A stretch of 64,000 nt of DNA from Candidatus Omnitrophota bacterium (lineage in GTDB: Bacteria > Omnitrophota > Gorgyraeia > 2-01-FULL-45-10). Positions 27,958-50,177 of this stretch are shown in pieces. Location of the stretch: the NCBI GenBank assembly GCA_003142795.1, contig PLNN01000019.1, forward strand, positions 51,991 to 115,990, read 5' to 3'. The notes beneath the pieces were generated by a model. That model did no database searches, was not told where the DNA came from, and was given only the letters and a program-made list of their open reading frames with translations. The position numbers and the translations under genes were made by a program. Position 1 is the stretch's first letter. The number at the start of each line of letters is the position of its first letter.

Positions 27958-27988
27958 CCGTGCCTGCGCCTCCCAGGTGCAGGCACGG
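27958..27988 (+). terminator. Candidate stem-loop terminator after ORF1
   Basis: Perfect 10-bp GC-rich stem ccgtgcctgc / gcaggcacgg with an 11-nt loop, 43 nt after the TAA. It is followed by A/T-rich sequence with no clean U-tract. A second, imperfect hairpin lies at 27921-27953. Confidence 0.4.
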
Positions 27989-28004: not shown

Positions 28005-28146
28005 AAATAACAAAAAGTTATATAATATTATTGACAATGTTATATTAATATTATACCCTATATAAAAGAATAAAAAGTTATAAATAGTATAGAATTTGCT
28101 TAAACATTCACAAAAATATGAAATATGAAGGGCTGAAAAACCAGAA
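28005..28146 (+). promoter_or_regulatory. Extremely AT-rich promoter region for ORF2
   Basis: GC is about 20% here. Elements present are TTGACA at 28031-28036, several TATAAT-like hexamers, an 11-bp direct repeat aaaaagttata at 28011-28021 and 28072-28082, and a 10-codon uORF (28118-28150) whose TGA overlaps the ORF2 ATG. Confidence 0.45.
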
Positions 28147-31100
28147 ATGAATTTTGAGGGCTTAGTTAAAAGTAAATCGGTAAAAAACGAGCTGACTTCC
28201 AAATGTCTTTTTACGGGCTGGCAAAGTCATAGAAAGAAAAAATGGATTTGCCTCATCGCCATTATTCTTACCTGTACCTTCATTCCTCAAAACATAGCAT
28301 ATTCTCAAGATGCCGCTCCTATTTGGTCTAAGGAACAGAACGGGAACGGCGATGTCAGAATTCCTAAAGAAATTGCCGTTATAAAAGAATCTTACGCCGC
28401 CTCAAACGGTAAGACCGTGATCAATATACAAGACGCCCATGCTTCTCTAGGCGCCCAAGAATCGATCGTAGCCGCACTAGACTTTTTGGTGGCTAATTAC
28501 GACTTAAAGTTGGTAGCCATTGAAGGCTCAAGCGGATACATCGATACCTCTCTTTTAAAAACATTTCCCAATGAACGCATGAGAAGGAGTGCCGCTGAAT
28601 ATCTCATGAAACAGGGCAAAATGTCTGCGGGTGAATTCTTTTCCATCACGTCAAATAAACCAATAGCATTATATGGGATAGAAGATAAGCCGTTATATAC
28701 TGAGAACGTAGAGCAATTCCGTAAAATATACGAAATAAACGAGTCGGCAGGCAAAGATATCAAGAAAATGCTTGAAGTCCTGAGATCTTTAAAGGGCAAG
28801 ATCTATTCCGACGATCTGAAAGCGCTTGATGAAGATGCGGATCTGCATATAAACGGTAAGATATCATTTAGCGCACGATGGAAATTAACCCGGGACCTGG
28901 CGGCAAGATACGGGATCGATTATAAAAAATATGATAATCTGGCGAAGCTTATAAGATCTTTTGATCTGGAAAAAGGGATAAATTTTGAGAAAGCGAATAA
29001 AGAACGTAGTTTATTAATAAATGAACTGAGCAAAAAACTTCCTAAAGACAGGCTTGAACAAGTAATATTAAAATCCGCCTCATTCAGCGCTCATAAAATT
29101 GCTCAAGGTGAATACTATGCCTACCTGCAGCGTCTTGTCAGGGAAAATGGCATAGATCCCAGCCCCTATTCCAATCTCATTGCGTATACAGATTATGCAG
29201 CCCTTTATGAATCTGTAGACATTTTAGCGGTTTTTGAAGAAATAAAGGATTTAGAAGGCCGCATCCAGAGTAAGCTATTCAAAAATGAGGACCAGAAGAA
29301 ACTTTACGAATTCTCGCAATACATTGGACAGTTAAAAGACCTGTTCGAACTGAAGCTTACAAATGTGGATTTTAAATGTATTTCTGAGAACGGAAAAGAG
29401 TCTAATGCCCGCGAGATCTCAAAATTCGTAAAAGATGCCGCCGTAAAATATAACGTTAAGATCGATAATAAAGAAAATGACCTCGCTGGAACATTCCGCA
29501 ACATACCCATCGCATTAGAATTTTATAAAACAGCCGAAAAGAGAAACTCTGCGATGCTCGCCAATACGATAAAGCGGATGAGCGCGGAGGGGCAGAGGAT
29601 GGCGGCGTTGATAACCGGCGGCTACCATACAAAAGGGCTGACAGAAAGGCTGAAAGAAAATAAGACCTCTTATTTTGTACTGCTGCCGACATTCGATCCA
29701 TCCAAGGGAGAAAGGCCCTACGCCGCGATACTCACGAATAAAAAACAATCTTATGAATCGTTTCTGGACACAGGCAAATATTATCTTGCCACAAGCGCTT
29801 TGCTCGAAGGCGCCGACTTAACCAAATTCGAAGAAGCCTTCGGGCATATATTGGAACAAACGATCGATGAAATAAAAACCAAAGTTTCTGATCCCGGAGA
29901 AATAGAAACAAGGCTATTATCATCAATACATAGCTGGGTAGAAAACCGCGAGTCTTTCCTCAAGGCTAACCCTCCGCCCGGGGAGTTTCGTCCCATAAGA
30001 TCGGAGGAATTTGAAAAATATCTTTTGAGATTGTCCGGAAAATTACTCAGCAAACCGGAGAAATGGGAAGAAAAGGACAGAGACACAAAAGGCGAGAACG
30101 CCGGCCATGCGCGCGAAATAATAGAGGATTTAATAAAACAAGGTAAAGTGGTTGAAGTCTTCCTTGCAAAAGACCACCTGGTGGCATATCGCGTGAGATG
30201 GATATACGATTACAAGCCGGGACAGATACAAGAACGAGACAATGTCTTCGAGGAAGAGATAAAAGTGAATCAGTTGTTTACCACGGTGCAGCAAAATCAT
30301 ATGATTAGTTGGATAAGAGTCCATCCCATTAACAGGGGCGCGATCAGGCTCCCGCACTTTCGGGTAATTCTTGATGATGTCAGCTTAAGATGGACGGATC
30401 ATATTGAAACGTCTAATATTTGCCATGCCGGACATCGCGATGGCGTTATCTACATAGGCGAACGTCTATTAACGTCCATGTTTGATTATGCCAGCGATCC
30501 CGTTAGAAATCTTGTCCTGGACCAGGATGAATATCAGCATTTATTAGACCCTAATTTTGTCTGTACGGTTGACAAAAAAGTACTGAAAAAAAGATTAAGA
30601 GCGGTTAACGAAAGAATAAAAGATATTTTAAGCAAACCCCCATCAATCGCCAAATATAAACTTAAAGTTTGCACCACGCATGACGAGGCTATTGCTAAGC
30701 ATAGCGGCATCAACCCCGATAACGGTAATATACGATGGGGTAACTTTCGGCCACGGATGAACCCCTATATAACAGATCGGATAGGCCCCATAACGGTTTC
30801 AGCCGGACTTTACATTATAAAAAGCAAGGGAGGCCCTTCTTTAGAAACAGCGGATACAAATATGAAAATATGGGTGGAGGGGAAGGACGAACCCGGCAAG
30901 TGGAATGAAATAAAGATGGATATGATTTACGCCAAGGATCTGGGCGGGGGGATCGCTTTTTCGTTTGTCGGCACTCTACCCGCTTTCTTCAAGGGCAAGT
31001 ACACATTTAGGTATTCAGTGGATGGCGGTAAGAACTGGCAATGGGCCAATAATGGCCCGGGAGACGATAGGGTAATAATCAGGCAGGAAGCCTTGCAACA

Positions 31101-34100
31101 GAGCGGGAAAAAATTGATTGCAAAGCAGGCGGATGAATATCTGATAGGTCCAAGAGGCGGGAAACATCGCACCATACGCCTTTATAAGCACGACTTGAAT
31201 TTAAGGTGGATATTTGATATGCCTTCTGACAGCTCCGGACGCCGGATAATTTTTAGCGACAATAACATAGGGTCTGTCCAAGGAAAGGGTGAAGGCAGCG
31301 TAAGTATGTATTACGATCCTCTAGAGAAAGCCGTCCTGATCAACATGGAGAGCATGGTATCTAATGGGCCGTCACAAGATAGTGTTGGCGTACTTCGAGA
31401 GGCCGGATGGGATTTAGCGCGCATAAAAATACCCATAGATGAAAATGGCATAGCGAAAGAAGTTATCCATGAACGCGAATTTATGGGGATTTCGCGTTCA
31501 GGCATCGCGATTCTTTTAAAACATGCGGGGGTAGATACAAAATTTAAAGATATTTACGCATTAGTTAAGCAGGAGTTAGTTCTTCGCGAAGTAGATAAGT
31601 TTGCTGAGGAGCAGGAAGCTCAAGATACCAAGACACTGTCAATAGATCCTATGAATAAGGTAGATGATTTCTTAAGAGATCCTGAGGCTTTTGGTGTTTT
31701 TGAGAATTTGCGGGGTGACATAAAAAAGATAGAAGATATAATTATATTCGCAAAACCATGGGAATTGAAACAATATGCCTTAGAACGTCTTAAAGGGCTT
31801 GTTAATAAAGGATATTACGGTAGAGATGAGTATTTTGAACTTGCGACCTACGCCGCTGAAAAAGACGGCCTTGAAGAAATGGCCTATATAGAGAGAACGA
31901 TAAGGCAAGATAAGTCTTTTCTTACCGATATGGGTATAGATGCCGCCAGGGTAGACAGCATTACTTTACATTGGCGCGCCCGCGGCCTTACCAAAGCCAT
32001 ATATCACGTGACAATAAACATGGACGACGGTACGGAGCGCATTTTTGCCATAAGCCTTATGAGGCCGCTCTATTCGCAATTAGGGTTTTCGATGGAAGAG
32101 ATCGAGAAGTCATTGGATCTCTGGTCAAAGATGAGCGAGGCAGGCGTAGACTACGTGCCCCACTTTTATGCCGTAAGGCGGATTAACGATTATCGGCCGA
32201 AATTATTCGATAAAGAACTGCCGGTGCATACGACGCCGGGACCTACGATAGTTTCCAACACTATCAATCCGGCAAAGATCATGTACAATGACTTATTGAT
32301 AATAGCAAGAGAGTTCGTTCAGGGCTATGACATGCCCGGATATTGCACACATTGTTGTACTACGCATCAGGAAGAGAGGGATGTATATGTCGCCGGAATA
32401 AGCGCGTACTTCCGGATGTGGAAAGAGGGCAAAAAAACTGTTGCCGACACAGGGCGAGCTCTATTAAATCCCGATCCGCGCAATGTTGTTGTGCATCCCG
32501 AAGGCAATAATTACCATGGCGTTGTTACCGATCTAAATGGTTTGCGGGAAGGGGTCGGCCTGGAGGAACTTTTAACATCATTGCAAAAAACAGGTTATGA
32601 AAAAAAGGACGTCCTGGCTGCCGCGCGGCAGACGCTCGATGGGGCAGAGTATGAATTTGCGAAACAATATTATAGAACAGGCGAGCATCCGGATTTTAAG
32701 GCTGTGTGTACAGAAGCCCTTACACGCGAGAGCATCCAAAAATTAGTTGCCGGAATATTAAAGAATCCGGCCAGGTTAAATAAAGAGGAGCAGGTAATCT
32801 CCCCCAAAAAAGTGAAATTTGCGCTTGACAGCATCTTCCACATCGTAGGAAGAAGTACGAATGATCTATCCGGCGAAGATAGGCGTTTAATACTCTCAAA
32901 GATAAAAAGACTTATTCGCCAGGGATTTCCAAATAAAATAAGATATTTTCGCATGAGAGAAAGCCAGCAACCGGTCGCTGAGATGCTATGTGCATTCGCA
33001 AAAGAAAATACGCACTATCTTGTAGAGGGGTTCCTTAATGATGAAGGGTTTTCTTCCGCAGGGAATAGTTTGGCGCGGGAAGGACACCTGCGCAGAGTGA
33101 TATTACGTCAGATGCTTAGGGAACTTTATCCGAAAGGGGACAAAGCCGATAACATAGAAAAGACTCTATTAGGCCCGGATTTACTGTTTCGCGAAGCCCT
33201 TAGTAACTACGCGTGGAAATGTCGTATCAGGACCGCCATGGAAGACCATGTGCTGTGCCGAAACCTGGTGACCTATCAGAAATCTCGCGACAAAGACGTG
33301 GCCAGGCGCGCCGCGGCAGAATATGTAGAGACTATTTATATGATAATGAAGAAAGAGATGGATGAAGACGGAAGGGTGTTTGGTAGTAGCGAAGAATTGA
33401 TCGATTATCTAAGGACACATTTCGGCGTAAGAAAATTTATTATCGCCGGCGGCAAGGGCACAAGATTCTCCCCCGGTGGTCTTATCCTAAAGCCTCGTTT
33501 TAAACCAGACAACTATAACACCAATATAAAACTCTCCAGGGAATCATCGGCTTTCGGAACGCTTGAAGACGTGATAGTCGTTGACGCCACCACCGTGTTT
33601 TACATACTTAAAGACAAGTGTCCCATAGCTGCATCTATAAAGAGTGGAATACGCGATAGGATAAGCAGCGAGATTTCAAAACTTGTGGATGCAGGTGTTA
33701 TAGATAGCCGAAAAGGGGCGGATTTATCAAGCGCTATACGCAGGATAGTCGATGAAGAGATGCATTACACTCGCAGGCCCGATGGTCTATGGGACCTATC
33801 CATGGTGTTGCGCTCCATAGAAGAAAAGGCAGGCGAGAAAGACTTGAAGAGCCATCTGGTCATTGATAAGATAGCGTACGCGATATTTAAGACAATAATG
33901 GATGACAAGACGCTGATAGATAAAAGTAAGATAGACGAGCTCTTTGGCAGAAATTGCATTGTGGTGTTGGACTCAGGGGAAGGGCACGGAGGCGCTTATG
34001 CTGAAGCATTGTCCGAACTTGAGACTAGCGGTAAATTGCAAGAAGCGCGCTATTCGGTCATAGTGTATGCCGATTCACCCGGATGGGGGCTCGATAGGTA

Positions 34101-37100
34101 TCCCAATTACGTCTTTACGTCTTACCTTGCCACGGTGAACCTTCTTTCTCCGAAAGTGAATGACTTACCGAAAGTTACCATAGCGGTAAAAAACCCGAAA
34201 GACGGCAGGGCTGAAGGACGCGCTCGCGTTTTTACCGAATACACCGAAAAATTTGCCAATACACCTATAGGACTTAAGGAATGGGCAGACATGTCTCCCG
34301 CAGAAAGAGCCGAATCTATCGATATGGCAAGGCAACACGACCAGAGATGGCTTACAAATGCCAATATTCTTATCTATGATACGATGTGGGCCGCAAAGAG
34401 ACGCGGTGTTCTCTATGAGCGCTATCGTCACGAACTCGGAGAAGCCGGCGAGCACAAACAAAGATCTTATGAGTATTGGGCTAGCGATTATTTAAATATT
34501 GCCGCCGCTGAATATGAAGAAACAGCGAAAGAAAACCCGGATGCTTCGCCTATGACACGTCTTGTGTATGTCGGAGAGAGCGCTCCGGACGCATTGAAGA
34601 CCCTACCGACGGCTCTAAATTATAGAGATGATCGCCAAGACATGATAATAAAAAAGATAAGGGCGATGGGAGTCGTTGTTGATCCTGATGTGACGATATC
34701 GATATCCAGCGATGATATGGGTGCGGCAAGTTTTGATCTGTGCAGAGCTATCGATTCTATTTTTGGGGACAATCGTGAAGACGCACCTGGATCCGGTCCA
34801 ATAAGACTTAAGGGCACCATACATCTTAGCGATACCGTAGTTGTCAAAAAAGGAGCTACTTTGGATGGCACCAAAAAAGACATTTCGCTGACAGGCAAGT
34901 GCGTTGTTGAAAGAGGCGTGGAGCTGGGTGGTGTTATCGCAGAAAATGAGCTCTTTACCAACAGCCGCCCATACGAACAGGAAAATGTTTACCTGACAGG
35001 GTTTCCGTTTTCGAGCCAGAGCACCGTTGAATCTGTCCCGGTTACCGGAATAGATTTCAGGGCTATGGGTATTATTGTAAACGATTCCACAAGAGTATGG
35101 ATCGCAAAAAAGGATAAAGATAGAAGTGACCTCGAGATCCTCAAAAACATTTTCGGAAACGACACAGACGGCCACAGGGTGACAGACCAGATATTTTTAT
35201 ATGGCGATATTGTTCTGGATGAAAACGTCAGGGTTGAAAATGGAACTATGTTGGACGGACGGCGTAATAGAGTAATTCTTACCGGTAAGACCCACGTAGG
35301 TAAAGGCGTAAATTTAAAAGGCGTCAAGGCGGAAGACACGGTGTTTGCCGGCATCGATTATCTCGATGTCTACCATTACAGGCAACCGGCACACGACTCT
35401 ATTATCGAGATCAATAATTCTCTTTTTGTTAATTCTTACATAGAGTTCGGCGCCAAGGTGCGTAACTCTATGGCAATAAATTCCTGCGTTATGACAGAAG
35501 CGCTAATAGCCGAATCCGACATTTTAGGAGAAATCGTTGTCCCAGGTAATGATATTACAAATCGCCGGTTAAAAGACATGGTTAATACCGTATCTCTGTC
35601 TGTCGAAATAGGAGATAGGATCGAAAAGGATTATGTGCCCGGGCCATTCCGCCTCGAAGAATTATCTCCGGAAGATCAGGTGGGCATAAGAGAAGGTTAT
35701 CAAAAAGTTGCCGCATATTTTTATGAAAGGATTATCCCAGTTAGATCGGTAAGGAAAAGATTGATCGAAGATACACAAAAGTTCTTATACAGTGATGTTA
35801 CGGCCAAGCTTACAATAGAACAGCTGAAGCAATATATATTCGCCAAGGCAAGGGAAAATATCAGAAGATACGGCTCAAAAAGCAATGAGGCGGAAAGGCC
35901 TGCGCGGCTTGCGGCAGTTATCAGGGCACATTTGCAGCCGGTAATGGAAGAAGCGCATAGCGTGGACATGGGAAATGCGCCGGTCGCCAGGAACACGTTT
36001 CGCAGACTGGCCATATTGAGCGCCAGGTTCAATTTTGTGGACTATTCTATAAATCCGGAAATTTTCGACACCGGCCATCTGGATGCGGCTGCAAAAAACC
36101 CCGAAAAAGATTTTACGCTTCTGGATCAATTTGCCGAAAAAGAACTTGCCATTGACGGTCTGAATAAATTTGAGGAGATGGTCTTTGGCAGCCGCAAAGG
36201 AACGTTCTTATATCTCACTGATAATATAGGAGAGACCGAAGCTGACGCGCCGATGTGGGAATTTCTGGTCAGGATGGGGCACACCGTAGTTATCGGTGCC
36301 AAAGATGAATTTTGCTTTGGAGACATCGACGTTGAGGGAGTAGAAAAGATAATAGCTGACCATCCATCTCTTTCGGAATACGAGAAAAGCGGGGGAATAA
36401 GAGTTATTAAGACCGGTTCTGCGAGCGAGGGTGTATTCGCCCATAGTTTTAGCCATGAAGTGCAGGAAGTCTTAAAAGATAAATCTCTCATAGCGTTAAT
36501 TTCTAAAGGTCAGGCCAACATATTCAGTCTATCCGCCCGGAACAACATGAAAATGCCGGTAGTAGCTATGCTTGTGTCAAAGTCTATTACAGCAAAGAGG
36601 ATCACCGGTATCGCGCCCAAAGTTGTCGGCGACAAAACGACATTTTGGCCCGTCATCGCCGTGATCCCGGCAGGGAGCCATATAATGGACTGTAAAGGGC
36701 CGAGCCAATTCGAGGGAACGCTTCAAAGGTTTGGCACCGTTCGTGACGAGCTGGTTTCCGGGGAAAGGTCGAGTTTCATCGTAGGTTTACCGAAAGGCAC
36801 ACCAAAAAAAATTGCGAGCATGGTAGAAACGGCGGTCAATGCCTCCCCGCTTCTCGGCAAAACGGCAAAAATAGAAGTATTCAGCGAAGGAGCAGAAGAG
36901 TTCGATGAAATGTTGGCAAAGGAAAGGACGAACGGTGTTTATCTTGACGAAAGCGTTTTGAGCCAGCTGGCTGCTCAACAAGATGCCCAGGACTTGATCA
37001 ATTCTGTGAGCGTCACCGTTTCAAGTATACTTATAGATTCCAGGACGCGCGAGGATCTGGAAAATATTTTGATCGAAATCGAGCAGAATATTGAAGCGAT

Positions 37101-37842
37101 CAAGAAATGCGACATCGACGAAGATAAAGCAAAATTGGAAGAGCTAATGAATAAGCATTCTAGCTACATAAAAGATCTCAAGTTGCTCATCTCCCGTAGA
37201 AAGCAAATAATAGAAAAGGCCTACAACAGTAATATTGATAGAATAGTGAGAGAGGCTACATCGTATGACAACAAGATAGCGGTGGCGACCACCGAAACTG
37301 TGGCCGGGTTCGATCCGTTCACATTCGACAACATAGGGAAAGCTGCGGCTCAAGGCATCGTAAACTATTTTATTTTTGGCGATATATTAAAAAGTCCCGA
37401 AGAGGCTGAAGCTTTTGTGAAGGCCTGCGGATACGAAGGCGATATGGCCGCTATACGATTCATAGACAAAAGAGGCCTTTCGTACAGGGAGTTAGCCGCC
37501 AGAATAGCCGCAGAAACTAACTTGCCCATGGAGAAAATAGGCATAAGGGCCGCTGCGGGCGAGCTTGAACTTCCGAAAAACGGGGAAGAAGCCGTACCTG
37601 GCGTATTATTAGAAGTACAGGCCAAGGGAGATATCTATTTAGCGATGAATTCCTACCAGGCACTGCTTAAGATACTAACACAACTAAAAGAAGGCGCTAC
37701 TCTTGAAGAGATTAAGATATCCGGCGTGGAAAAGACTGGTCGAAGGGGCGTATTCAATTATTCACCTCGAATAGATTACGATAAAGATATGAAAGATTAT
37801 AGAAATGCCATTGGGCTAATTTTGGTACGGACAAATGCGTAG
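28147..37842 (+). CDS. Giant secreted or anchored multidomain protein (3231 aa): N-terminal conserved domain, sugar-nucleotidyltransferase-like segment and left-handed beta-helix
   Basis: Uninterrupted ORF. The N-terminal KKKWICLIAIILTCTFIPQNIAYSQD reads as a signal peptide or anchor. It is paralogous to ORF3 over the N-terminal ~430 aa and over the NTP-transferase motif. Confidence 0.8.
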   Translation: MNFEGLVKSKSVKNELTSKCLFTGWQSHRKKKWICLIAIILTCTFIPQNIAYSQDAAPIWSKEQNGNGDVRIPKEIAVIKESYAASNGKTVINIQDAHASLGAQESIVAALDFLVANYDLKLVAIEGSSGYIDTSLLKTFPNERMRRSAAEYLMKQGKMSAGEFFSITSNKPIALYGIEDKPLYTENVEQFRKIYEINESAGKDIKKMLEVLRSLKGKIYSDDLKALDEDADLHINGKISFSARWKLTRDLAARYGIDYKKYDNLAKLIRSFDLEKGINFEKANKERSLLINELSKKLPKDRLEQVILKSASFSAHKIAQGEYYAYLQRLVRENGIDPSPYSNLIAYTDYAALYESVDILAVFEEIKDLEGRIQSKLFKNEDQKKLYEFSQYIGQLKDLFELKLTNVDFKCISENGKESNAREISKFVKDAAVKYNVKIDNKENDLAGTFRNIPIALEFYKTAEKRNSAMLANTIKRMSAEGQRMAALITGGYHTKGLTERLKENKTSYFVLLPTFDPSKGERPYAAILTNKKQSYESFLDTGKYYLATSALLEGADLTKFEEAFGHILEQTIDEIKTKVSDPGEIETRLLSSIHSWVENRESFLKANPPPGEFRPIRSEEFEKYLLRLSGKLLSKPEKWEEKDRDTKGENAGHAREIIEDLIKQGKVVEVFLAKDHLVAYRVRWIYDYKPGQIQERDNVFEEEIKVNQLFTTVQQNHMISWIRVHPINRGAIRLPHFRVILDDVSLRWTDHIETSNICHAGHRDGVIYIGERLLTSMFDYASDPVRNLVLDQDEYQHLLDPNFVCTVDKKVLKKRLRAVNERIKDILSKPPSIAKYKLKVCTTHDEAIAKHSGINPDNGNIRWGNFRPRMNPYITDRIGPITVSAGLYIIKSKGGPSLETADTNMKIWVEGKDEPGKWNEIKMDMIYAKDLGGGIAFSFVGTLPAFFKGKYTFRYSVDGGKNWQWANNGPGDDRVIIRQEALQQSGKKLIAKQADEYLIGPRGGKHRTIRLYKHDLNLRWIFDMPSDSSGRRIIFSDNNIGSVQGKGEGSVSMYYDPLEKAVLINMESMVSNGPSQDSVGVLREAGWDLARIKIPIDENGIAKEVIHEREFMGISRSGIAILLKHAGVDTKFKDIYALVKQELVLREVDKFAEEQEAQDTKTLSIDPMNKVDDFLRDPEAFGVFENLRGDIKKIEDIIIFAKPWELKQYALERLKGLVNKGYYGRDEYFELATYAAEKDGLEEMAYIERTIRQDKSFLTDMGIDAARVDSITLHWRARGLTKAIYHVTINMDDGTERIFAISLMRPLYSQLGFSMEEIEKSLDLWSKMSEAGVDYVPHFYAVRRINDYRPKLFDKELPVHTTPGPTIVSNTINPAKIMYNDLLIIAREFVQGYDMPGYCTHCCTTHQEERDVYVAGISAYFRMWKEGKKTVADTGRALLNPDPRNVVVHPEGNNYHGVVTDLNGLREGVGLEELLTSLQKTGYEKKDVLAAARQTLDGAEYEFAKQYYRTGEHPDFKAVCTEALTRESIQKLVAGILKNPARLNKEEQVISPKKVKFALDSIFHIVGRSTNDLSGEDRRLILSKIKRLIRQGFPNKIRYFRMRESQQPVAEMLCAFAKENTHYLVEGFLNDEGFSSAGNSLAREGHLRRVILRQMLRELYPKGDKADNIEKTLLGPDLLFREALSNYAWKCRIRTAMEDHVLCRNLVTYQKSRDKDVARRAAAEYVETIYMIMKKEMDEDGRVFGSSEELIDYLRTHFGVRKFIIAGGKGTRFSPGGLILKPRFKPDNYNTNIKLSRESSAFGTLEDVIVVDATTVFYILKDKCPIAASIKSGIRDRISSEISKLVDAGVIDSRKGADLSSAIRRIVDEEMHYTRRPDGLWDLSMVLRSIEEKAGEKDLKSHLVIDKIAYAIFKTIMDDKTLIDKSKIDELFGRNCIVVLDSGEGHGGAYAEALSELETSGKLQEARYSVIVYADSPGWGLDRYPNYVFTSYLATVNLLSPKVNDLPKVTIAVKNPKDGRAEGRARVFTEYTEKFANTPIGLKEWADMSPAERAESIDMARQHDQRWLTNANILIYDTMWAAKRRGVLYERYRHELGEAGEHKQRSYEYWASDYLNIAAAEYEETAKENPDASPMTRLVYVGESAPDALKTLPTALNYRDDRQDMIIKKIRAMGVVVDPDVTISISSDDMGAASFDLCRAIDSIFGDNREDAPGSGPIRLKGTIHLSDTVVVKKGATLDGTKKDISLTGKCVVERGVELGGVIAENELFTNSRPYEQENVYLTGFPFSSQSTVESVPVTGIDFRAMGIIVNDSTRVWIAKKDKDRSDLEILKNIFGNDTDGHRVTDQIFLYGDIVLDENVRVENGTMLDGRRNRVILTGKTHVGKGVNLKGVKAEDTVFAGIDYLDVYHYRQPAHDSIIEINNSLFVNSYIEFGAKVRNSMAINSCVMTEALIAESDILGEIVVPGNDITNRRLKDMVNTVSLSVEIGDRIEKDYVPGPFRLEELSPEDQVGIREGYQKVAAYFYERIIPVRSVRKRLIEDTQKFLYSDVTAKLTIEQLKQYIFAKARENIRRYGSKSNEAERPARLAAVIRAHLQPVMEEAHSVDMGNAPVARNTFRRLAILSARFNFVDYSINPEIFDTGHLDAAAKNPEKDFTLLDQFAEKELAIDGLNKFEEMVFGSRKGTFLYLTDNIGETEADAPMWEFLVRMGHTVVIGAKDEFCFGDIDVEGVEKIIADHPSLSEYEKSGGIRVIKTGSASEGVFAHSFSHEVQEVLKDKSLIALISKGQANIFSLSARNNMKMPVVAMLVSKSITAKRITGIAPKVVGDKTTFWPVIAVIPAGSHIMDCKGPSQFEGTLQRFGTVRDELVSGERSSFIVGLPKGTPKKIASMVETAVNASPLLGKTAKIEVFSEGAEEFDEMLAKERTNGVYLDESVLSQLAAQQDAQDLINSVSVTVSSILIDSRTREDLENILIEIEQNIEAIKKCDIDEDKAKLEELMNKHSSYIKDLKLLISRRKQIIEKAYNSNIDRIVREATSYDNKIAVATTETVAGFDPFTFDNIGKAAAQGIVNYFIFGDILKSPEEAEAFVKACGYEGDMAAIRFIDKRGLSYRELAARIAAETNLPMEKIGIRAAAGELELPKNGEEAVPGVLLEVQAKGDIYLAMNSYQALLKILTQLKEGATLEEIKISGVEKTGRRGVFNYSPRIDYDKDMKDYRNAIGLILVRTNA
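28415..29700 (+). other. Conserved N-terminal domain shared by ORF2 and ORF3, possibly a TraB/GumN/Tiki-like fold
   Basis: ORF2 has INIQDAHASLGAQ...AIEGSSGYIDTS...ERNSAMLANTIKRM...ALITGGYHTKGLTERLKE. ORF3 has IHIQDAHCNYEAQ...SVEGADGFVDTA...VLITGGFHTTGISKILEG. The C-terminal RN...GG.H.G motif resembles the TraB/GumN GaaHLxG motif. The fold assignment is tentative. Confidence 0.35.
33439..33474 (+). other. Sugar-phosphate nucleotidyltransferase glycine-rich motif (IIAGGKGTRFSP) in ORF2
   Basis: Matches the GGxGTR(L/F)xP signature of ManC, GalU and RmlA-type NTP-transferases. Confidence 0.5.
34800..35540 (+). other. Left-handed beta-helix (hexapeptide-repeat) region in ORF2
   Basis: Successive [LIV]-G-x-x-x-x hexads: IRLKGTIHLSDTVVVKKGATLDGTKKDISLTGKCVVERGVELGGVIAEN and VRVENGTMLDGRRNRVILTGKTHVGKGVNLKGVKAED. 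Confidence 0.5.
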
Positions 37843-37957
37843 CTTATTAAGCTATAAAAAAGTTAGATTTTATGGATTGACAAGATTTTCAATTATGGTA
37901 TAGTTTATATACTATAATTAAAGCGATAAAAAGTCATTAATGATAGTTATCCACAAA

Positions 37958-37983
37958 GTAGTGGACGTTTAAACGTCCACTAC
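37958..37983 (+). promoter_or_regulatory. Perfect 26-bp palindrome (gtagtggacgtttaaacgtccactac) 18 nt upstream of the ORF3 start, a candidate operator or RNA hairpin
   Basis: gtagtggacgttt is the exact reverse complement of aaacgtccactac and the site is centred on tttaaa. It lies between the AT-rich promoter-like region (TTGACA 37877-37882, TATAAT 37913-37918) and the RBS aaggagag at 37988-37995. There is no downstream U-tract. Confidence 0.55.
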
Positions 37984-38000
37984 AACTAAGGAGAGTATAA

Positions 38001-41000
38001 ATGGTCAAACCATTATCCGGTTTCAGGAACACAATAGTCTGTAAAACCATCTCACTTTTTCTATTACAAGCTTTTCTCTTCTATAACACCTCCTTTGCAT
38101 CCATCGACAAGGCAGCCTCGCAGCCACTTACTAAAGATGTTAAATTTAAACAGGCATCCATTGATGATATAGGCATATCCAAAGACATAGGCACTATAAA
38201 GACGAAATTCAAAGGCAGCGGCGAAAAACTTCTTATCCACATCCAGGACGCCCATTGTAATTACGAAGCCCAGACGAATATCGCGAAGATCCTCGAAACT
38301 CTATCTAAAGATTACAATATTAACACAATATCGGTAGAAGGCGCTGACGGTTTTGTCGATACCGCGTGGTTCAAATCATTTCCGGACGCCGATATCCGCA
38401 AAGAGGTTGCCGACTACTTCATGAAGAAGGGCGAGATAACCGGCGCCGAATTCCTCTCTATTACAAAAGATTATCCGATCAAGCTGTACGGCGCAGAAGA
38501 CCGCGACCTATATATAAAGAACCTCAATGCCTTCACCCAGATCTACCCCCACAAGCAGGAGATAGAAAAATACCTCTTAGGCGTAAAGACCATCCTCGGT
38601 AAGCTTAAATCATACATCTACTCCAAAGACCTGATGAGTTTCGACGCTGTGACCGAAGACTATAAAGATAAGAAGAAGACGCTGTCTGATTACGCTAAGG
38701 TGTTGAGCATCCAGCTGAAACGCCATAATCTGGACCTTAAAGCCTATCCCGATTTCTCAAAGTTAGTCTATACGCTAATCTACGAAGATAAGATCGATTT
38801 CAAGGTCGTCGACCAGGAAAGGGCGAACCTTATAGATGCGATCTCTAAAGCCATTCCGAAAGACAAGCTCCAGGATATGGTGGTAAAAAGCTTCTCTTTC
38901 AAGACGGGCAAGATCACCGCGTCCGAATATTATGAATATTTAAAAACAATCGCCATAGATAACAATATCGATTTTATGAAATTGTATCCGAACCTTTCGA
39001 ACTATGTTATCTATACGAAACTTTACGACAAGATAAACACTGAACATCTCTTTGACGAAATAGACAGGATAAAGATCGCCGTAAAGGATAAGCTTTTCGA
39101 GAACGACGACCAGCGCATTTTAAGTGATGCATGGGATAACGTAAACATCCTCGTGGGATTTATCAACATCAAGTTATCGAATAAGGAATACGATTATTAC
39201 AAGGCCCACAGGGACAGGTTCAAGGTAGAATTTTTCAGTGATTTTATTAAATCCAAAGTCGGCCAATATAATCTCGCCTATAATATAGACGAGCCGACCG
39301 AGAACGTAAAGACGAACATTCCGCAGCTGGAGACATTTTACGAGACGGCTTCCAAGAGGGACAAGGTGCTTGTCGATAATACAGTCGGTTCTATGAAGAA
39401 AGAGAAGGCAAACGTCGCAGTCCTGATAACAGGCGGTTTTCACACTACAGGCATATCGAAGATCCTTGAGGGAATGAACATATCATATATAGTAGTATGC
39501 CCGACCATCACCAAAGACGTCGAATCTCCGTATATCCAGGTCCTCACAAACCAGAAGACACCGTTCGAGGAGATACTGACAGAGAGCGCAACGCCCACGA
39601 AGAAGGATTCACTGCTGGGACCGTATCTACTCGCACGTAAGATCATGATGCGTTTGAACGGTGAGAAGGGTGCAATCAAGGCGCTTCAGGGCGCCGTAAA
39701 CCAGGCCGGCGGAGAAGCCGATCCTGTCGGGGCGATACAGTCGTGGGTGGCGTTCTATGTCGATCGTTATGTAGCCGCGATCAGAAGTGATGAACGGGCA
39801 AATAATAGCACGCCGCAGTCACTCGAAACATTGCGCAATGCCTTCGTTTTAGCGTTTTACAACTCTTTAGACACGCCTCGTATTTCACCGGAAGAGAAGA
39901 AGCAATTCGAACGGGAAACGCCTCCGCTCATAGAAGTGGAATTCAATAAGCTTATCAATACACAGACCGCGTCCGAATCTGCGCCGACGCAGCAGAATAT
40001 TCCCACGATAGTCAGAAAATCGCCTACGGATAATTCTGACGAATTGGATAAAAACGGCTTAAGGAAGCCGGGCGATTCTAGGCGGGACTACCAGAAACCG
40101 GACTCGCTGATACGCAACATCGGTGAAGGACGCGCGGCGGCTGAAAAAGCCATAAAGAATTTTGATATCCAAAGCGATGCCCGTAAGGCTTTGATCAAAA
40201 TTTTTGTTGATAGTTGGACGGCGAGAGGCCCTGAAGCTTTCTCAAAAGATCTGGAACGTTTTCAAGCAGATCCTCTTGGATTTGCACAGGAACAGTTGCA
40301 AAACACGGAAAAGAGACTCACGGCCATCAGACAAAATCTGGATAGAGTAGCATATTCACCAAGTTCTAAAAAAAGGCCTGTTGCGCAAGATTTGAAAAAA
40401 GACTTAGAAAGTGCAATTTGGCTTAAAAACGCTTTAACAAACTTCATTTCGGAACTCGAAAACAAGAACACGGCAGGGGCGGACCATAAAAATACGGTGC
40501 AATCCGTGTCCGAAGCGCGCGCGGCGGCAGAAGCTGCTGTTGCCAAGGCAGGCCATGGCAATATTAAGTATTATTTAGAACCAGTGGACAGAAATCCTGC
40601 ATACAAATTTTTTATCGACTATTTAGTGGGGAAATGGAATAAAAACTCGTCTGTCGAGTTTACGCAAGCATTGGAAAGACTCAACGCATATCCTCTCGAT
40701 ATTTTTGATGAGGTTCAGGCTGCGGCGAAAAAAAATAGCGCAGATGCTATCATTAAATGGACCGGTGTTCATAAATCTACCGAACCTGGAAAACTACCAG
40801 CTCCCATAAGTCCTGAAGAGAAAAACCTGCATGATGCATGGGAGAGGGCAAGCGCTATAGAGGGCCAGTTTAATGGCTACATTCACCATCTCGAACAGGC
40901 AAGCTGGAAGCGCGCCCCGCAATCCATGCCGGTGAGGAAGGGTGCTGGCGATAAGGCGACTGACAGCGGCATATACGGTATGATGGAACTTAACGATGCC

Positions 41001-44000
41001 GAAGTCGCGGCGATGCGCGAAATACAACGCCAAAGTTTCGTGGAAGGAACTTATAGAATAGCCACGGCCAAGGAGCTTGGGTTTACGGAATTGGGCGATT
41101 TCCGGTTTGTCGTGCATTACGGCCTCGAAGCCAGGATAGAGAAATATAATAAAGAGCACGGAACGAACCTTAAGACCGACAGGATCGACGCAGGCACAGG
41201 CGGCGAGGAATACGGTTATGGGCTCAGGCAGGCGCATATAAGCGCATATCGCTTTAATTCTCTGATCAGAACGAAATCCGGCAAAAGAGTGCTGGAAGTA
41301 ATAGCCACTCACGAATCTTTGGGCCACATCGCGATCGCGAATAAAGAAGGCGGCTCAGCTGCCTATAAAATGAAGCTTGCCGACCCGGCCATGAACGAAG
41401 AGGATGTCGTGGACTTTCATGTCCCCGGAGCTAATACAAGATGTGCATACGACTGGCTTCCAGGCAACATTACCATACGGCAGTTATTAGCGCAGATAGA
41501 TGAAAGCCGCAAAAACGATGAATTATACCAGATGGAAGAAGGGCTTCTCACCGATACCGCTTATGGTACAGCCGCTCGTGACGAGATAGTAAGACTGAGA
41601 AAAGAAGGCAAGGATTATGAGGCAGGCGAATTTGCAAAGTTAGTTTACGCAAGAAGAGCCAATATCGACAGGATGAAGAAAGTGCTTACAGAGCCTTATA
41701 AAGATTATGACGTCATCATCATAAGCTCTACAACCGAAGCTGAAGCAAAAGACCAGGAAGCTAATCTCAGGAAAATTTTCGGCGGCATCAAGACATCGAA
41801 CAATGCGATGGGTAACAAGGTGTGCGTCCTCTCTATGCTTGACACTTCGGAAGGTAACAACCTGATAGGGCAAAATGTTACAGAGGCCGAGGCAATAGAG
41901 GCGTTTAAGAAATGGGCAACCGAGAACGGCTTACCGGAAACGGACCTTACTAAGCTCCAGGCCGAAAAAAAGGTAAAAGTGGCAACATATCATAACGGCG
42001 GCAAGGCCGAGAGATTTTCTCCGGCCGGCCAGGCATTGAACCTGTCAAGGGCAGACCAGCTGCTTGTTGGAAGCGTCTTTGACATGAATGGCAAACCTAT
42101 AGAATTAAATCTTCTTTTGACCGTCATTCTATCCACTGCATTTAACGCTGAAACGAACGATGGATCGATGCACGATGTGTATTGGGCGAACCAGGCAGAA
42201 GTTGGCGCAGTGTTGAGTGTGATCAGGCATGGATACGTCTTTAACAAATTTGCAGTTGCGGTGCCGGCAAATCCCAGCATGAAAGACCTGTATGATTACG
42301 GGACGTTGATCGCGACAAAAGATGGCCGTATACTGAAGTTCCTCGGCAATAAGAAACTTACCGAGAAAAATAGTGCCGGCAGGTATATCCCAACCTCAGA
42401 TCCATACTGGCGTGCTAAATATGACGAGCTGATGGAGGCCGCCAAAGAGGGCAGGGCATATTTTGATTACGGTTCATTCAGCATGAGCTTAGATATGCAG
42501 AATGCTCTTCTCGAATATTGGCGCGACGTTAAAAAAATATTTACTGTTATGCAGAATGATGTAAATGGCAGAGCAGGTATATCGCGCGAGATCGATCCTC
42601 AGATGACCCAGAATATTGTTCCGATAGTAAATGGTGTAATGGGCCATGAGGCTGAGCTAAGTCAGCTTCCGACTATCACAGAATTGGATTCAGCTGCTGA
42701 TAAGAACGCGATTTTGCACAAAGCCTATCTTGCATTATTAAATATAATGGCTCCCGAATACAAAACCATATTAGAAGGTCTATATACGAAAGCAAAAGAG
42801 GATTTAGTAAAAAAGGAAAAAAAGGAGCCCGGGAAGAAAGATAACGATCAGAATCTCCAGGCTATATACGAAACGATCGAATTTTTCATCAGATACAAAG
42901 ATACTGTTAATTTAATGAAAGGATTTGGTATAATAGATTTCGGGCCCGGCAGCCATTGGTTCGCATATAAGAGGCTGCTCGATATGGGTAACGAGAAATT
43001 CTTTATGTTGGCCGATATGACCGGGCAGAGCATGGAACTCGAGCCCAATGGTAATGATCTACGTGCGACCGCGACTGTCCAGGATAAGGTAAAGGCTGAA
43101 GATGCCCGCAGGCTAAGGAGTATACCAAACAGCGCTGTCTGCGTATTTGAGGTGAACGGGCAAAAGGTAACGCTTAGCGCCGGGCAGGCGGCTAAAGGGT
43201 GGGAAGGCCATGGCGTTAAAGTAAAGGGCTCTATTATACAAGGGAATACCGTTCTTCTGCCCGGCTCAGAGATCGTAAATAGCGGCGTCAATAATTCCCA
43301 GGGCCGGATAGCGGCTGCAAATTCATATATAGATTCATCGACCGCCCCGAAAATAGAGGCTAAGAATAGCATTGTAGTAAACGGCGTTGATGGAAAACTT
43401 ATTATCGCGAATAGCGAAATTGTAACCGACGCGTTCAGGCCGGTTATACATGACGACAGGTTCGCGGACGGGCATACGAGGATGCGAGCGCCCGTAGGAT
43501 ACGATCCTAAGCCGGGCGATGAAGCCCTGGCGGCCAAAATGTCGGATGCCGTCAGGTTCGGCGATAACAAATATTCATTTGAGGAGATCAGGAATATGTC
43601 GTGCGACAAGGACGCGAACAAGGCGATCGAGAAGACGGCAAGAGATAGTGTACATGCGAGGCTCCAAATGATATCCGAACGCTGCAAATATTGTATAGAT
43701 CATTTCAAGCTGTTGAAATTCGGAACAAGCGGATTGAGAGACAATGACTCCGCTCTTACCGATATGGAGGTATATATAAACGTCCGCGGCCTTGTGAGAT
43801 ATCTTACCGGCATCAACTCGAGGATGGACGTGCCGGACCATATTAAGAAACTGGTATATGAAGGAGCTATTCAAAAATTGTCCGACATAGTGCTTGCAGG
43901 AGATCTCAGGCCGTCCACCCCCCGGATTTTAAAAGCAGTCGCAGTTGGTATAGTAGCGGAAGGCGGCGCGCCTGTATATATAGGAAAACAGCCAACGCCC

Positions 44001-47000
44001 CTGCAAGTTCTCTACTCATTGAAGAAATCAATGGCAGGATTCATGACTACAGGCAGTCATATCCCGCTCGGTATGAACGGCCTTAAAGGTAACAGGCCAA
44101 ACGGTGAGTTGTTAAAACAAGAAGAGAAACTCATCCTGACGGAAGTCGCCAAAGTGAGAAACGGGGAATATCTTCAAACCGATGCCGAAAGCATGTTCGA
44201 TAGGAACGGATTTTTCAGGACGGACGGCAAGATTTCCGGAAACCAGCGCAATATCATTTCGAAAGCCGAAGAAGCCCTTGATCCGGAGAATCCGAATAGA
44301 CGCGAAGCGGAGAAACTATACGAAGACCGTTATTTAGGCGGTCTGGGAAGGTGCCTCGAGGGCGTCGACGTTCTCTTCTGGCAGCATTCTGCGGTTGGCC
44401 GCGATATCATTCCCGATATTATGAGAAAGATGGGAGCCAACATTACGACCGTTGCGCCTCTCGATGTGAGTAAAGGCGAATTCTGCTCACTAGATACGGA
44501 AGATGTTAAGCCGCAATTCAAGCAGCTGGTAAAGAAATTGATGCAAGATAATAATAAGAAGGTCCTTATCACAACCGATGGCGATTCCGATAGGCCCGCC
44601 GTATTTATACTGGCGAAGAATCCTTTTAAGAATGGCGAGGAAGACGTTTATTATTTAACCGGAGATAAGCTCGCTATAATTACGGCGTTGTTATTGAAGC
44701 CCAAGTTCTTTGCGATACCGGTTACGTCAAACCATATAGCTCTGCAGAAATTACGTGATGCGGTCCCCGGCATTAAAATAGAGCTTACAGATGTAGGCTC
44801 TCCTTATATTGCCGAGGCTATGTATGCGAATAACGAAGGCGATCAGGCCAATGGCTGCGAGGTCAATGGAGGATATTTCATAGGGTCTCAGGTATTCAGG
44901 ATGCCCGAAGAAACAATAGCGAAAATAAGGGCATTGAACAGGAGCTCCTCTTCTCCGCTCGCTGAGCCCACCGGCGAATTTTCATATCTTCCTTCGCGGG
45001 ACGCGTCAATCGCGTTAATAAGCATACTGCTTTCGGCGAAACTGAAGAATATGACGGTCGAGGAGTTGATAAGGGACACGTTCAGCGGAAAATACGCGGC
45101 TGAGACATCGGCCGGGCTCGTTGAGAACGTATCCGATAAGCAGCGCACGCCCGGATGCGAAGATTACCAGAAAGAGATGGGACCTGCAATAGCGAAGAAC
45201 CTTTCTCCGAAAAACGCAAATATACTCGAGGTGATATTTGAGGGAGATGAAGTAAGGTATGTGCTTAAAGACGATGCCTCAGGAAAAAAACGCGATGCCG
45301 ACAAGCCGTTGAAGGCAGAGGCATTGGCTATAAAGTCACGGCTTGAGGCGAGATTGAAAACTATAGCCGGCTTGCAGGGCCAAAATATCGTACAGATCAA
45401 TTTTAAAAACGGCGTTCGTGTATTCTGGTCGAACAGGGAAACTATACATTTACGAGCGTCCAGCAACGCGGCGCAGTTCAGGGGATATACCCTGGCACCC
45501 GGCGAGATGTTCGATCCCCGGCCGGAGCAGATGGTTGAAGAGATGACCGCGCCAAGCACCGGGCCGCTCGTTAAAATAATTCAAGATTATATAAATGAAA
45601 CTACCGGCAAAGCTGTCTCTACTGCCGCGGCATCGGCCTCGTCTTCCAGGAAATCGCCCGGCAGGTTCGCGACATCGGCAGACGCGCCGCAGGGCGGACA
45701 CTTGCGCGAGCTAGTTGCTATCGGTACAAAATACTCGCTTGATTCGGTCGATCCCGACCTGATAGATAGAGAGATCGCCAACGGAGCCACCAGTGCTACG
45801 TCTAATCCTATTATAATATCGAACCTTGTCAAAAAAGTGCTTGCGAATATCGAGAAGAACGGCGGTCCGCAGACTGAATTCGAGAAAGGAATTTATTCGA
45901 TCCTCGCAAAATCTCCCAATGAGGAAGTCGCGACCAGAGAAGCGACCAAATTTATCATAGGTTTCGTCGCGGCAAAATTCAGGCCCGTTTATGACAGAAC
46001 AAGCAAGAATGACGGATATGTAAGCATTGAAGTCGATCCTCGGCTAGAGGACACGAAAGAAGGCCCGTATGCAACATGGACGCATGAAGAGCGGGTGGCC
46101 GAAGTTAAGCGTCAAGCCGTCGAATTCAGCAAGATCGCGCCTAATATCCTGATAAAGATACCTGCTACTAAAGCCGGACTTGACGCCCTGGAAGATCTCG
46201 CCTATCAAGGCATAAACCTTAACGTTACTCTTATATTTACGCCTGAACAGGCTTATGCGGCAAGAGAGAATGTATGGAAAGGCCTCCAAAGAAGAAAAGC
46301 TGAAGGGAAGTCCTTAGACATAAAGAGTGTTTATAGCATCTTTGTCAGCCGGACCGATGATTATACGGCTAAGAAAGCCCCGGATCTGCCTTCAAATGTT
46401 CAGGGAGAGATTGGAATATACATCGCGAAGCTCATATATCTTCAGAATAAAGAATTCTGGCAGGATAAAGGACTTTCCTTGAGCCAGGAAATGATATTTG
46501 CTTCTACCGGCAGTAAATCAAAATTGGTAGCCGGGATCAAGACCGAAGCGGATGTTTTAAAACTAGTCGAATTAGCGACATCCGGATCCAAGGAAGCAGA
46601 AGATGCGATGAATGCATTAAAAGAAATGTGTAGATATGTCTATGAACTTGCAGGAGACGATATTCAGACCAATCCGCCCCTGACAGCATTTGCCGTGAAT
46701 GTCGCACCATTTGCGATAACCGAAAAAAGAGTAGGTGCATTACCTGCTTCCGAAGTTCGGAAGATAATGATACAATATTTAGATTCTCACATGCAGGAAC
46801 TTTATGAGGCACTAATGACTGATGGCATTGCGAAATTCGTGAATCCGCAAGTTGAGTTGGTAAAGAACGTTGCAGCGGCTATGGCAAAAATTCCGAGATC
46901 GCCTGCCGCAACTCCGGAGAATATCGTGAAAACGCTCGTAGATAATCGTAATCCTCAGGCTGCTGTGGCCGGCATATTCGATAATCGCCAGGAGAGTGAA

Positions 47001-50000: not shown

Positions 50001-50177
50001 ACGATGTCTTTCGAGGAATTGCAGAAGCTGGGAAGCGATTTCCTCGATGCGAATGGCATGCCTAGCCTGTTAGCGAAGATAGAACTGGTAAAACGGCTAT
50101 TGATAACGCTGCCTGCTAAACCATTCAATGCCGACGACGATCTTCACAGGCGCCGCGAAGTTCTCTGGAGCGTGTAA
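38001..50177 (+). CDS. Giant secreted multidomain protein (4058 aa): N-terminal conserved domain, NTP-transferase-like motif, LbH, phosphohexomutase domain, transaldolase domain and cupin-like segments
   Basis: Uninterrupted ORF with a strong RBS (aaggagag, 6-nt spacer, ATG 38001). The N-terminal signal-peptide-like segment is [22 protein letters not shown]. The embedded enzyme domains are listed as separate features. Confidence 0.85.
   Translation: [4058 protein letters not shown]
38225..39515 (+). other. Conserved N-terminal domain, paralogue of ORF2 28415-29700
   Basis: See the ORF2 domain feature. Protein identity across the domain is about 30-35% by eye. Confidence 0.35.
41987..42031 (+). 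other. Degenerate NTP-transferase glycine-rich motif ([15 protein letters not shown]) in ORF3
   Basis: Aligns with ORF2 IIAGGKGTRFSPGG but has GKAER in place of GxGTR. Confidence 0.3.
43200..43440 (+). other. Hexapeptide-repeat (LbH) segment in ORF3
   Basis: [70 protein letters not shown]. Confidence 0.4.
43700..45520 (+). other. Complete alpha-D-phosphohexomutase (PGM/PMM superfamily) domain embedded in ORF3
   Basis: It has the N-terminal [10 protein letters not shown] motif, the catalytic-serine loop [11 protein letters not shown] (equivalent to TASHNP), the metal loop TTDGDSDRP (DGDxDR) and the phosphate-binding loop [15 protein letters not shown] (RxSGTEPxxRxY-like). It is collinear with the free-standing paralogue at 58964-60622. 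Confidence 0.8.
45700..46560 (+). other. Complete transaldolase-family domain embedded in ORF3
   Basis: It is collinear with E. coli TalB. [13 protein letters not shown] aligns with [28 protein letters not shown] aligns with [57 protein letters not shown] aligns with [40 protein letters not shown], with the Schiff-base Lys conserved. [11 protein letters not shown] aligns with ISPFVGRILDW. Confidence 0.8.
48900..49450 (+). other. Cupin-like segments in ORF3, possibly mannose-6-phosphate isomerase type II-like
   Basis: [57 protein letters not shown] and [34 protein letters not shown] have the G(X)5HXH...E...G...P.G..H...N shape. No strict motif was verified. Confidence 0.3.

Follow-up and report, generated by a model that had tools for sequence, protein, structure and literature searches.

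A palindrome in the leader of a giant Omnitrophota gene as a probable copy of a dispersed GTAG-tagged repeat

A 12-kb gene of Candidatus Omnitrophota is preceded by a perfect palindrome that ends a few nucleotides short of its ribosome-binding site. Is this palindrome a switch dedicated to the gene, a terminator of the gene before it, or an element that belongs to neither? We addressed this question with the 64,000-nucleotide stretch of DNA in which the gene lies (the window, meaning this whole stretch), with orthologous loci and with Omnitrophota DNA from genome and metagenome collections.

The palindrome and its setting

Three consecutive giant ORFs of 9252, 3231 and 4058 aa, with embedded metabolic-enzyme domains (ARMT1-like, PGM, transaldolase and cupin), occupy positions 157-50177 of the window; homologues are annotated as Candidatus Omnitrophota. 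Downstream of the giant ORFs is a mannan-utilisation cluster (GH130, GH113, MFS and ABC permeases), and synteny is conserved at four other loci (L011, L012, L016 and L020). ORF2 and ORF3 are both on the forward strand and are separated by a gap of 158 bp, inside which the palindrome lies. The features of this region are as follows.

28147..37842, + strand: ORF2, 3231 aa, with an ARMT1-like domain; gene 5′ of the element
37847..37862, + strand: motif TTAAGCTATAAAAAAG (TTAAG-N-ATAAAAWAG), from the alignment of 8 orthologous loci
37877..37904, + strand: predicted ORF3 promoter, 11/12 consensus match; conserved in L009, L011, L012, L016, L020, L024 and L025
37945..37955, + strand: one-sided flank AGTTATCCACA; the same 11-mer or a variant in 7/12 members of the family
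37958..37983, no strand: palindrome, hairpin body of the probable repeat, from self-complementarity, shuffles, identical copies and a covariance model
37988..38003, + strand: Shine-Dalgarno sequence AAGGAGAG (37988-95) and ORF3 ATG (38001-03), from sequence and folding
38001..50177, + strand: ORF3, 4058 aa, with a signal peptide (secreted) and PGM, transaldolase and cupin domains; gene 3′ of the element

The 26 bp from 37958 to 37983, GTAGTGGACGTTTAAACGTCCACTAC, are identical to their own reverse complement, as the first-pass annotation of this DNA had claimed, and are laid out as GTAG-TGGACG-TTTAAA-CGTCCA-CTAC. The flanking bases are a on either side, so that the palindrome does not extend beyond 26 bp. 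None of 100 dinucleotide shuffles contained a match to its 20-nt core, and perfect hairpins with a stem of 10 bp or more number two in the 64-kb window, where shuffles give approximately 0.5. To the left of the palindrome is the 11-nt sequence AGTTATCCACA, the two together forming an element of approximately 39 nt. To its right are aact, the sequence AAGGAGAG (37988-37995), tataa and the ATG at 38001. The position originally described was confirmed: the palindrome is 3′ of a promoter close to consensus, and 4 nt separate it from the ribosome-binding site AAGGAGAG. So was the lack of a following U-tract: the palindrome runs into AACTAAGGAG, a terminator scan does not call the hairpin, and it is not a canonical U-tract terminator.

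Other inverted repeats are present nearby. One spans the −10 region within the same gap (AATTATGGTATAG-TTTAT-ATACTATAATT, within 37893-37921) and another, TAGCTTATTAAGCTA (37840-37854), overlaps the ORF2 stop codon. Past ORF1, the 9252-aa gene, a GC-rich hairpin with 14-nt arms that are 93% complementary (27958-27988) follows the stop codon at a distance of 43 nt and precedes a TTGACA at 28031. It resembles a terminator but has no U-tract, which suggests from the sequence that the source organism may use U-less terminators. A perfect hairpin with 14-bp arms, AATTAAGAGGGCGC-TCG-GCGCCCTCTTAATT (50208-50238), starts 9 nt after the likely ATG of the gene that follows ORF3 (50197), within its signal-peptide codons, and is not a member of the GTAG family described below.

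The predicted promoter of ORF3 comprises a −35 element TTGACA (37877-37882), a 16-nt spacer and an extended −10 element TGgTATAGT (37896-37904), matching the consensus at 11 of 12 positions plus the TGn. It places a transcription start near 37911, approximately 47 nt 5′ of the start of the palindrome. We compared seven orthologous or syntenic loci (L009, L011, L012, L016, L020, L024 and L025); the closest homologue, P0001, offered no usable upstream region. The −35/−10 pair is conserved in position and sequence before the orthologues at all seven, in the shared order TTAAG-N-ATAAAAWAG, approximately 20 nt, TTGACW, 16-18 nt and −10 element. The upstream motif stands approximately 20 nt before the −35 element in 8/8 orthologous promoters, the window included, and may be an UP-element or the site of a factor, possibly a shared regulator of the giant-gene cluster. 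Since ORF3 has its own conserved promoter, the palindrome lies in a predicted 5′UTR.

Although the promoter is kept, none of the seven orthologous ORF3-type leaders contains a member of the palindrome's family. These leaders are 56-173 nt long and unrelated in sequence. Because they are unrelated and lack a family member, the element appears to be a lineage-specific addition to the ORF3 leader and not an ancestral regulatory device of the gene. The proposal that the palindrome gates ORF3 independently of ORF2 is therefore upheld in one part only: ORF3 does have a predicted promoter of its own, conserved at the seven orthologous loci, but a dedicated gate is not supported, the seven leaders doing without the palindrome. 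The giant-gene cluster is more likely to be regulated through the conserved promoter and the motif that precedes it.

The leaders at L012 (9892-9921) and, at the same site, L016 contain a hairpin of their own followed by a U-rich tract (TAGACCATTTTT...AAAAATGGTCTA tttctgtttttt). The two hairpins differ by one compensatory change and one G:U change, and from their sequence they look like an attenuator or terminator in these orthologues.

A family of copies with complementary arms

The palindrome is not confined to this locus. At least four other Omnitrophota assemblies contain the same 26-mer, the surroundings being unrelated. When GTDB was scanned with the 20-nt core, at one genome per species, two further Omnitrophota MAGs (L002 and L004) proved to contain the complete 26-mer. 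A scan of JGI metagenomes added L006 and L008, with a variant in L007. The genes neighbouring the four exact sites (L002:6267, L004:5934, L006:2652 and L008:1224) are all different. Core matches in L003 (Cochleicola, a flavobacterium) and L005 (an unclassified metagenome contig) were dismissed as chance, being ordinary terminators with an A-run and a T-run at their sides, and a match in a viral contig, L023, is not a palindrome. No copies were found in plasmid, phage and IMG/VR collections.

We then searched the available Omnitrophota DNA with the pattern GTAG-N4-9-TTTAAA-N4-9-CTAC, which does not require the arms to be complementary. All ten matches nevertheless had no stem mismatch. Their stems are TGGACG (five matches), CGGACG, CCGACG, GGGAGG, GGCACC and GTGGACG, the last (L007:2188) having 1 bp inserted symmetrically in each arm. 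The centre is altered in two other members: L004:2599, GTAGTGAACAGGCATGCCTGTTCACTAC, has a different yet palindromic centre, GCATGC, and L025:6455, GTAGCGCACCTTTTAAGGTGCGCTAC, has a single central mutation. The centre behaves as a loop, since this single mutation is tolerated. The family formula is hence GTAG-N6-TTTAAA-N6′-CTAC, in which stems vary and complementarity is always perfect. GTAG is at the 5′ end in 12/12 members with the complementary CTAC at the 3′ end of every copy, and the arm varies at five of its six positions, each change being matched in the other arm.

This covariation was quantified on five distinct 26-mers and three length or centre variants. In the gap-free alignment 100% of cells are paired, 5 of 11 pairs are changed on both sides and there is no G:T pair; none of 500 shuffles reached the covariation score. 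Covariance-model scores over 241 kb are bimodal, with 11 sites at 35.8 bits or above and the next best at 13 bits. The copy in the window scores 48.2 bits, the background not exceeding 13 bits, and is the only family copy that the model finds in these 64 kb. Two copies were found in approximately 148 kb of loci fetched by protein homology, compared with one in the 64-kb window, and two members each in the loci L002, L004, L006 and L008 (2-8 kb each), so that the element is multi-copy in other genomes. The 26-mer is identical across species, as is the 11-nt flank where present.

We conclude that the palindrome probably belongs to a family of small palindromic repeats dispersed in Omnitrophota genomes, of the GTAG-tagged REP (repetitive extragenic palindrome) kind. 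The family is apparently undescribed so far. Rfam 15 has no matching family (best score 20 bits against a gathering score of 104, E ~1), literature searches on Omnitrophota giant genes and genomes turned up neither palindromes nor hairpins, and the REP literature that we searched covers no Omnitrophota genome. A sequencing or adapter artefact was also considered (a PmeI site lies inside the palindrome) and rejected: the copies occur in Omnitrophota contigs only, come from independent projects, are contig-internal and include stem variants and an in-frame copy. The family could serve as a sequence marker for Omnitrophota contigs.

Three features of this small sample point to a constraint on the DNA itself: Watson-Crick symmetry is strict, wobble pairs are lacking and the one insertion is symmetric. 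Such a constraint could be a single-stranded hairpin or cruciform, or the homogenization of quasi-palindromes by template switching. The same pattern argues against selection on RNA structure only and against a dimeric repressor that reads the sequence.

The sites of the copies are varied: some follow a stop codon, some separate convergent genes, some directly precede a start codon, and one is in frame within an ORF. Those within 25 nt of start codons are the copy in the window, which occupies the ORF3 leader, L004:2599 (followed after 8 nt by GAGGAG, the ribosome-binding site of an SMC-like gene, smc), L002:6267 and L002:4775 (in the very short spacers of a pilin-like array, 11 nt before start codons) and L006:590. 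The last of these overlaps the TAG stop codon of one gene, the TAG of its GTAG tag doubling as the stop, and the next start codon is 22 nt away. L004:5934 is 37 nt past the stop codon of the same SMC-like gene. The copies in L007 and L009 are between convergent genes, the box-bearing end of the L007 copy abutting a stop codon, and L008:1224 is between two minus-strand genes with the stop codon of the upstream gene abutting the box of the element.

In-frame insertion of the palindrome into Omnitrophota proteins is exemplified by L006:2652, which lies within an 800-aa ORF resembling a membrane spermidine synthase. Alignment with homologues places the copy in a length-variable loop. The closest homologue of this ORF, at 66% identity, has ATTTCCAC...GCGTGGA...CCATACTAT at the same place, which looks like a decayed remnant of the element.

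Two side observations concern these loci. The minus strand of L002 (3084-6621) carries approximately eight small pilin-like genes in tandem, with N-termini such as RAQSTLEYALVIAAV; the GTAG palindromes in its spacers are 11 nt before the starts with no Shine-Dalgarno sequence in between, and in one case AAGGAG is found just upstream of the hairpin, possibly as a split ribosome-binding site. A second hairpin family, with stem CGAAGCAATCT / AGATTGCTTCG and differing loops, occurs in different genomes at L006 850-878 and L009 20555-20583, the former inside the same 800-aa ORF as the GTAG palindrome.

Local effect and alternative readings

Transcribed into RNA, the palindrome folds into an 11-bp stem with a 4-nt loop (−17.0 kcal/mol; −10.9 kcal/mol as DNA). 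Folding of the 5′-UTR, which had been suggested as a check on a regulatory hairpin, gave this stable −17.0 kcal/mol structure with the ribosome-binding site largely free, its unpaired probability being 0.59 with the element and 0.72 after deletion of the element in silico. A folding scan found no other strong or GC-rich hairpin between the ORF2 stop codon and ORF3. Read-through transcripts from ORF2 would therefore reach the palindrome.

As a repeat, the element would have entered the ORF3 leader in the source lineage. Its copies may be spread or maintained through a single-stranded DNA hairpin or a cruciform, in the way that REPs are by Y1 HUH transposases (RAYT/TnpA-REP). Once transcribed, it would fold into a hairpin of −17 kcal/mol that leaves the ribosome-binding site, 4 nt further on, accessible. 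Read-through transcripts from ORF2 would end or pause in this hairpin, whereas in transcripts initiated at the promoter it would occupy about +47 to +72. The hairpin would hence act generically, for ORF2 transcripts as a barrier to 3′-5′ decay or to read-through with partial termination, and in the ORF3 leader as a structural stabilizer, processing barrier or insulator. By analogy with REPs, its local roles would be those of a 3′ exonuclease barrier, partial terminator and leader structure, with no ligand- or repressor-controlled gate at ORF3.

An operator or regulatory hairpin dedicated to ORF3, as the first-pass annotation had envisaged, is not supported, given the seven orthologous 5′UTRs without it, the copies beside unrelated genes and the varying arms. 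Nor is the half-site GTGGACGTTT in excess in the window. A broader version makes the palindrome the operator of a conserved dimeric transcription factor with a phylum-wide regulon, ORF3 being repressed by a roadblock between promoter and ribosome-binding site. A dyad that is perfect through its centre, a 26-mer that is identical across genomes and several copies within 25 nt of start codons are what such an operator would look like; we nevertheless consider it highly improbable. The arms range from TGGACG through CGGACG, CCGACG and GGGAGG to GGCACC with each change matched in the other arm, and L007 has a symmetric insertion. Moreover, copies lie between convergent genes (L007 and L009), in an ORF (L006) and over stop codons, the site is absent before the seven orthologues and the half-site is not in excess in the window. 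Because the half-site varies at five of six positions while complementarity is perfect, the element is better understood as a hairpin-forming repeat than as a repressor recognition sequence. The palindrome, striking as it is, should not be taken for a dedicated switch of the 12-kb gene.

A plain terminator or attenuator, serving ORF2 read-through or the ORF3 leader and unrelated to any repeat family, is very unlikely. In its favour, the stretch from the ORF2 stop codon to ORF3 has no second strong hairpin, the one that follows ORF1 (27958-27988) likewise has no U-tract, and the orthologous leaders of L012 and L016 do have a hairpin followed by a U-tract. However, the palindrome is without a U-tract and is placed downstream of the promoter, and its identity with copies in other genomes, one of them inside an ORF, goes beyond what terminator function alone would explain.

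The repeat reading leaves the flank to be considered. AGTTATCCACA (37945-37955) contains TTATCCACA (37947-37955), which fits the DnaA-box consensus (TTWTNCACA, as quoted in PMC6006769) and ends 2 nt from the GTAG. In 7/12 members AGTTATCCACA or a variant (TTATTCACA in L009, TTACCCACA in L007) is present 2-3 nt 5′ of the GTAG, on one side only and whatever the stem, and gives the otherwise symmetric element a polarity; it is missing from the other 5/12 copies. A toggle in which TCCAC of the box pairs with GTGGA of the left arm was rejected: the box is kept when the stem is CGGAC or GGCAC and hence is not a pairing partner of the stem. Another perfect TTATCCACA lies inside ORF3 at 38233-38241, in the same orientation and 286 bp downstream of the first. 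In the window there are 16 boxes with at most one mismatch (14.8 expected) and 3 perfect boxes (approximately 0.7 expected).

These boxes allow a reading in which DnaA binds TTATCCACA, the palindrome forms a cruciform, and dispersed copies titrate DnaA or couple transcription of neighbouring genes to the replication cycle; in the ORF3 leader the box would be at about +36 to +44. Consistent with this are an exact box consensus at a fixed offset of 2-3 nt in 7/12 copies, independent of the stem, an AT-rich palindrome centre that would suit extrusion, and the second perfect box at 38233. We consider it unlikely all the same, as 5/12 copies have no box, boxes with at most one mismatch do not cluster (16 against 14.8 expected), and the monotonic cumulative GC skew across the site indicates neither an origin nor a terminus. 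An oriC, a terminus or dif site and parS were rejected on related grounds: there is no skew switch and no DnaA-box cluster, hence the site is not an origin, and symmetric compensatory variants would be unexpected at such sites. Only one or two TAG triplets follow the box, a count made with an origin core of the DnaA-trio type in mind.

The box may instead relate to mobility. The second-largest subclass of RAYT-like Y1 proteins (TIRYT, or TnpA-Y1 subclass 2.1) has a C-terminal HTH that resembles DnaA domain IV (Bac_DnaA_C) (Quentin 2018, PMC6006769), an architecture that would be expected to recognise a duplex DnaA box beside a GTAG-footed hairpin. DnaA boxes were sought in the repeats flanking TIRYT genes and not found, these repeats being GGGGWSAS terminal inverted repeats (PMC6006769). 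The published flanking repeats are thus unlike DnaA boxes, and no such gene was found near the copies studied here. A phmmer search of all ORFs at the copy-bearing and orthologous loci, with three approximate Y1 consensus queries that match Pfam Y1_Tnp, found no Y1_Tnp ORF. A database search with an approximate RAYT consensus returned RAYTs from phyla other than Omnitrophota only, with one family dominating.

By analogy, we hypothesize that a protein combining Y1 and DnaA-like domains would be an attractive partner of the element, with binding by host DnaA as the alternative. More specifically, and as a tentative suggestion that we consider unlikely, the element could be the cognate DNA of Y1 HUH transposases with a DnaA-domain-IV-like HTH, the repeats could spread high-affinity DnaA boxes, or both. 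In the former case the duplex TTATCCACA would dock the HTH, and the AT-centred palindrome would extrude as a cruciform, so that the HUH core meets a hairpin with GTAG at its foot on either strand; in the latter, genuine high-affinity boxes would be distributed around Omnitrophota chromosomes. If true, this would tie a mobile repeat to the control of replication initiation. The juxtaposition of box and REP hairpin would also yield a concrete and testable hypothesis on the substrate of a domain so far unexplained, the DnaA-like one of many RAYT-related proteins.

Comparison with known systems

Among known systems, CIRCE/HrcA is the model closest to the operator originally proposed. CIRCE is a conserved inverted repeat between the promoter and ribosome-binding site of groESL and dnaK leaders, where it is both an operator and an mRNA hairpin. 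It has fixed arms, a 9-nt spacer and one regulon, and is conserved at orthologues, whereas none of this is true of the Omnitrophota repeat.

Correia elements of Neisseria insert in leaders and intergenic regions, to which they add hairpins, processing sites or promoters. Rickettsia palindromic elements (RPE), for their part, insert in frame into ORFs (PMC3733652), and both kinds resemble the Omnitrophota family as small, mobile palindromic repeats. Both differ from it, however, in their much greater size of approximately 100-150 bp, in their terminal inverted repeats around an internal region and in the lack of a GTAG tag and a DnaA box.

The closest likeness is to GTAG-tagged REPs, the hallmarks of which are a terminal GTAG, stems of 6-13 bp, short loops and subfamilies distinguished by complementary stem changes (Di Nocera 2013, PMC3733652). 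They lie between unidirectional or convergent ORFs and near 3′ ends, their TAG can be a stop codon and in-frame intragenic copies occur; examples are E. coli REP/BIME, Stenotrophomonas SMAG and Opitutus terrae GTAG-17 to -20 (PMC3733652). Members are already known in Verrucomicrobia and Planctomycetes, relatives in the PVC superphylum (PMC3733652), and the RAYT/TnpA-REP transposases of REPs have been described (PMC3479197, PMC8266576). The Omnitrophota family shares the short stem, fully paired and footed by a 5′ GTAG, the loop of 2-4 nt, the subfamilies arising through compensatory stem changes, the copies after genes and between unidirectional or convergent ORFs, the use of the tag's TAG as a stop codon and the occasional in-frame intragenic copy.

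A published descriptor requires GTAG or GTGG 0-2 nt 5′ of a fully paired stem of 7-20 bp with a loop of 2-5 nt, and the accompanying RNAMotif rule asks for at least three G/C among the first four basal stem positions (PMC6006769). In the Omnitrophota family GTAG is at the foot of the hairpin in 12/12 members, and beyond it the stem continues for 7 bp (11 bp when the tag is counted) to a 4-nt loop. Among its first four stem positions the TGGA variant, which is the commonest and the one in the window, has two G/C, one short of the rule, and CGGA, CCGA, GGGA, GGCA and CGCA have three to four.

The family also departs from canonical REPs. Their tag is unpaired at one end, whereas every tag in the Omnitrophota family is paired by CTAC, so that GTAG is present on both strands. 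The centre of the Omnitrophota element is a conserved, AT-rich TTTAAA that is usually itself palindromic, and G:T pairs, frequent in classical REPs (PMC3733652), are absent. In addition, an 11-nt DnaA-box-like module is found on one side, and the identity of the 26-mer across species is unusually high for REPs; such identity could also mean a conserved protein-binding site. From these likenesses and differences in sequence, we rate the family as a new form of GTAG-type REP, distinguished by a paired tag and an adjoining DnaA-box module. GTAG-type REPs would thereby extend to an uncultivated phylum and gain an unusually symmetric form that is conserved across species.
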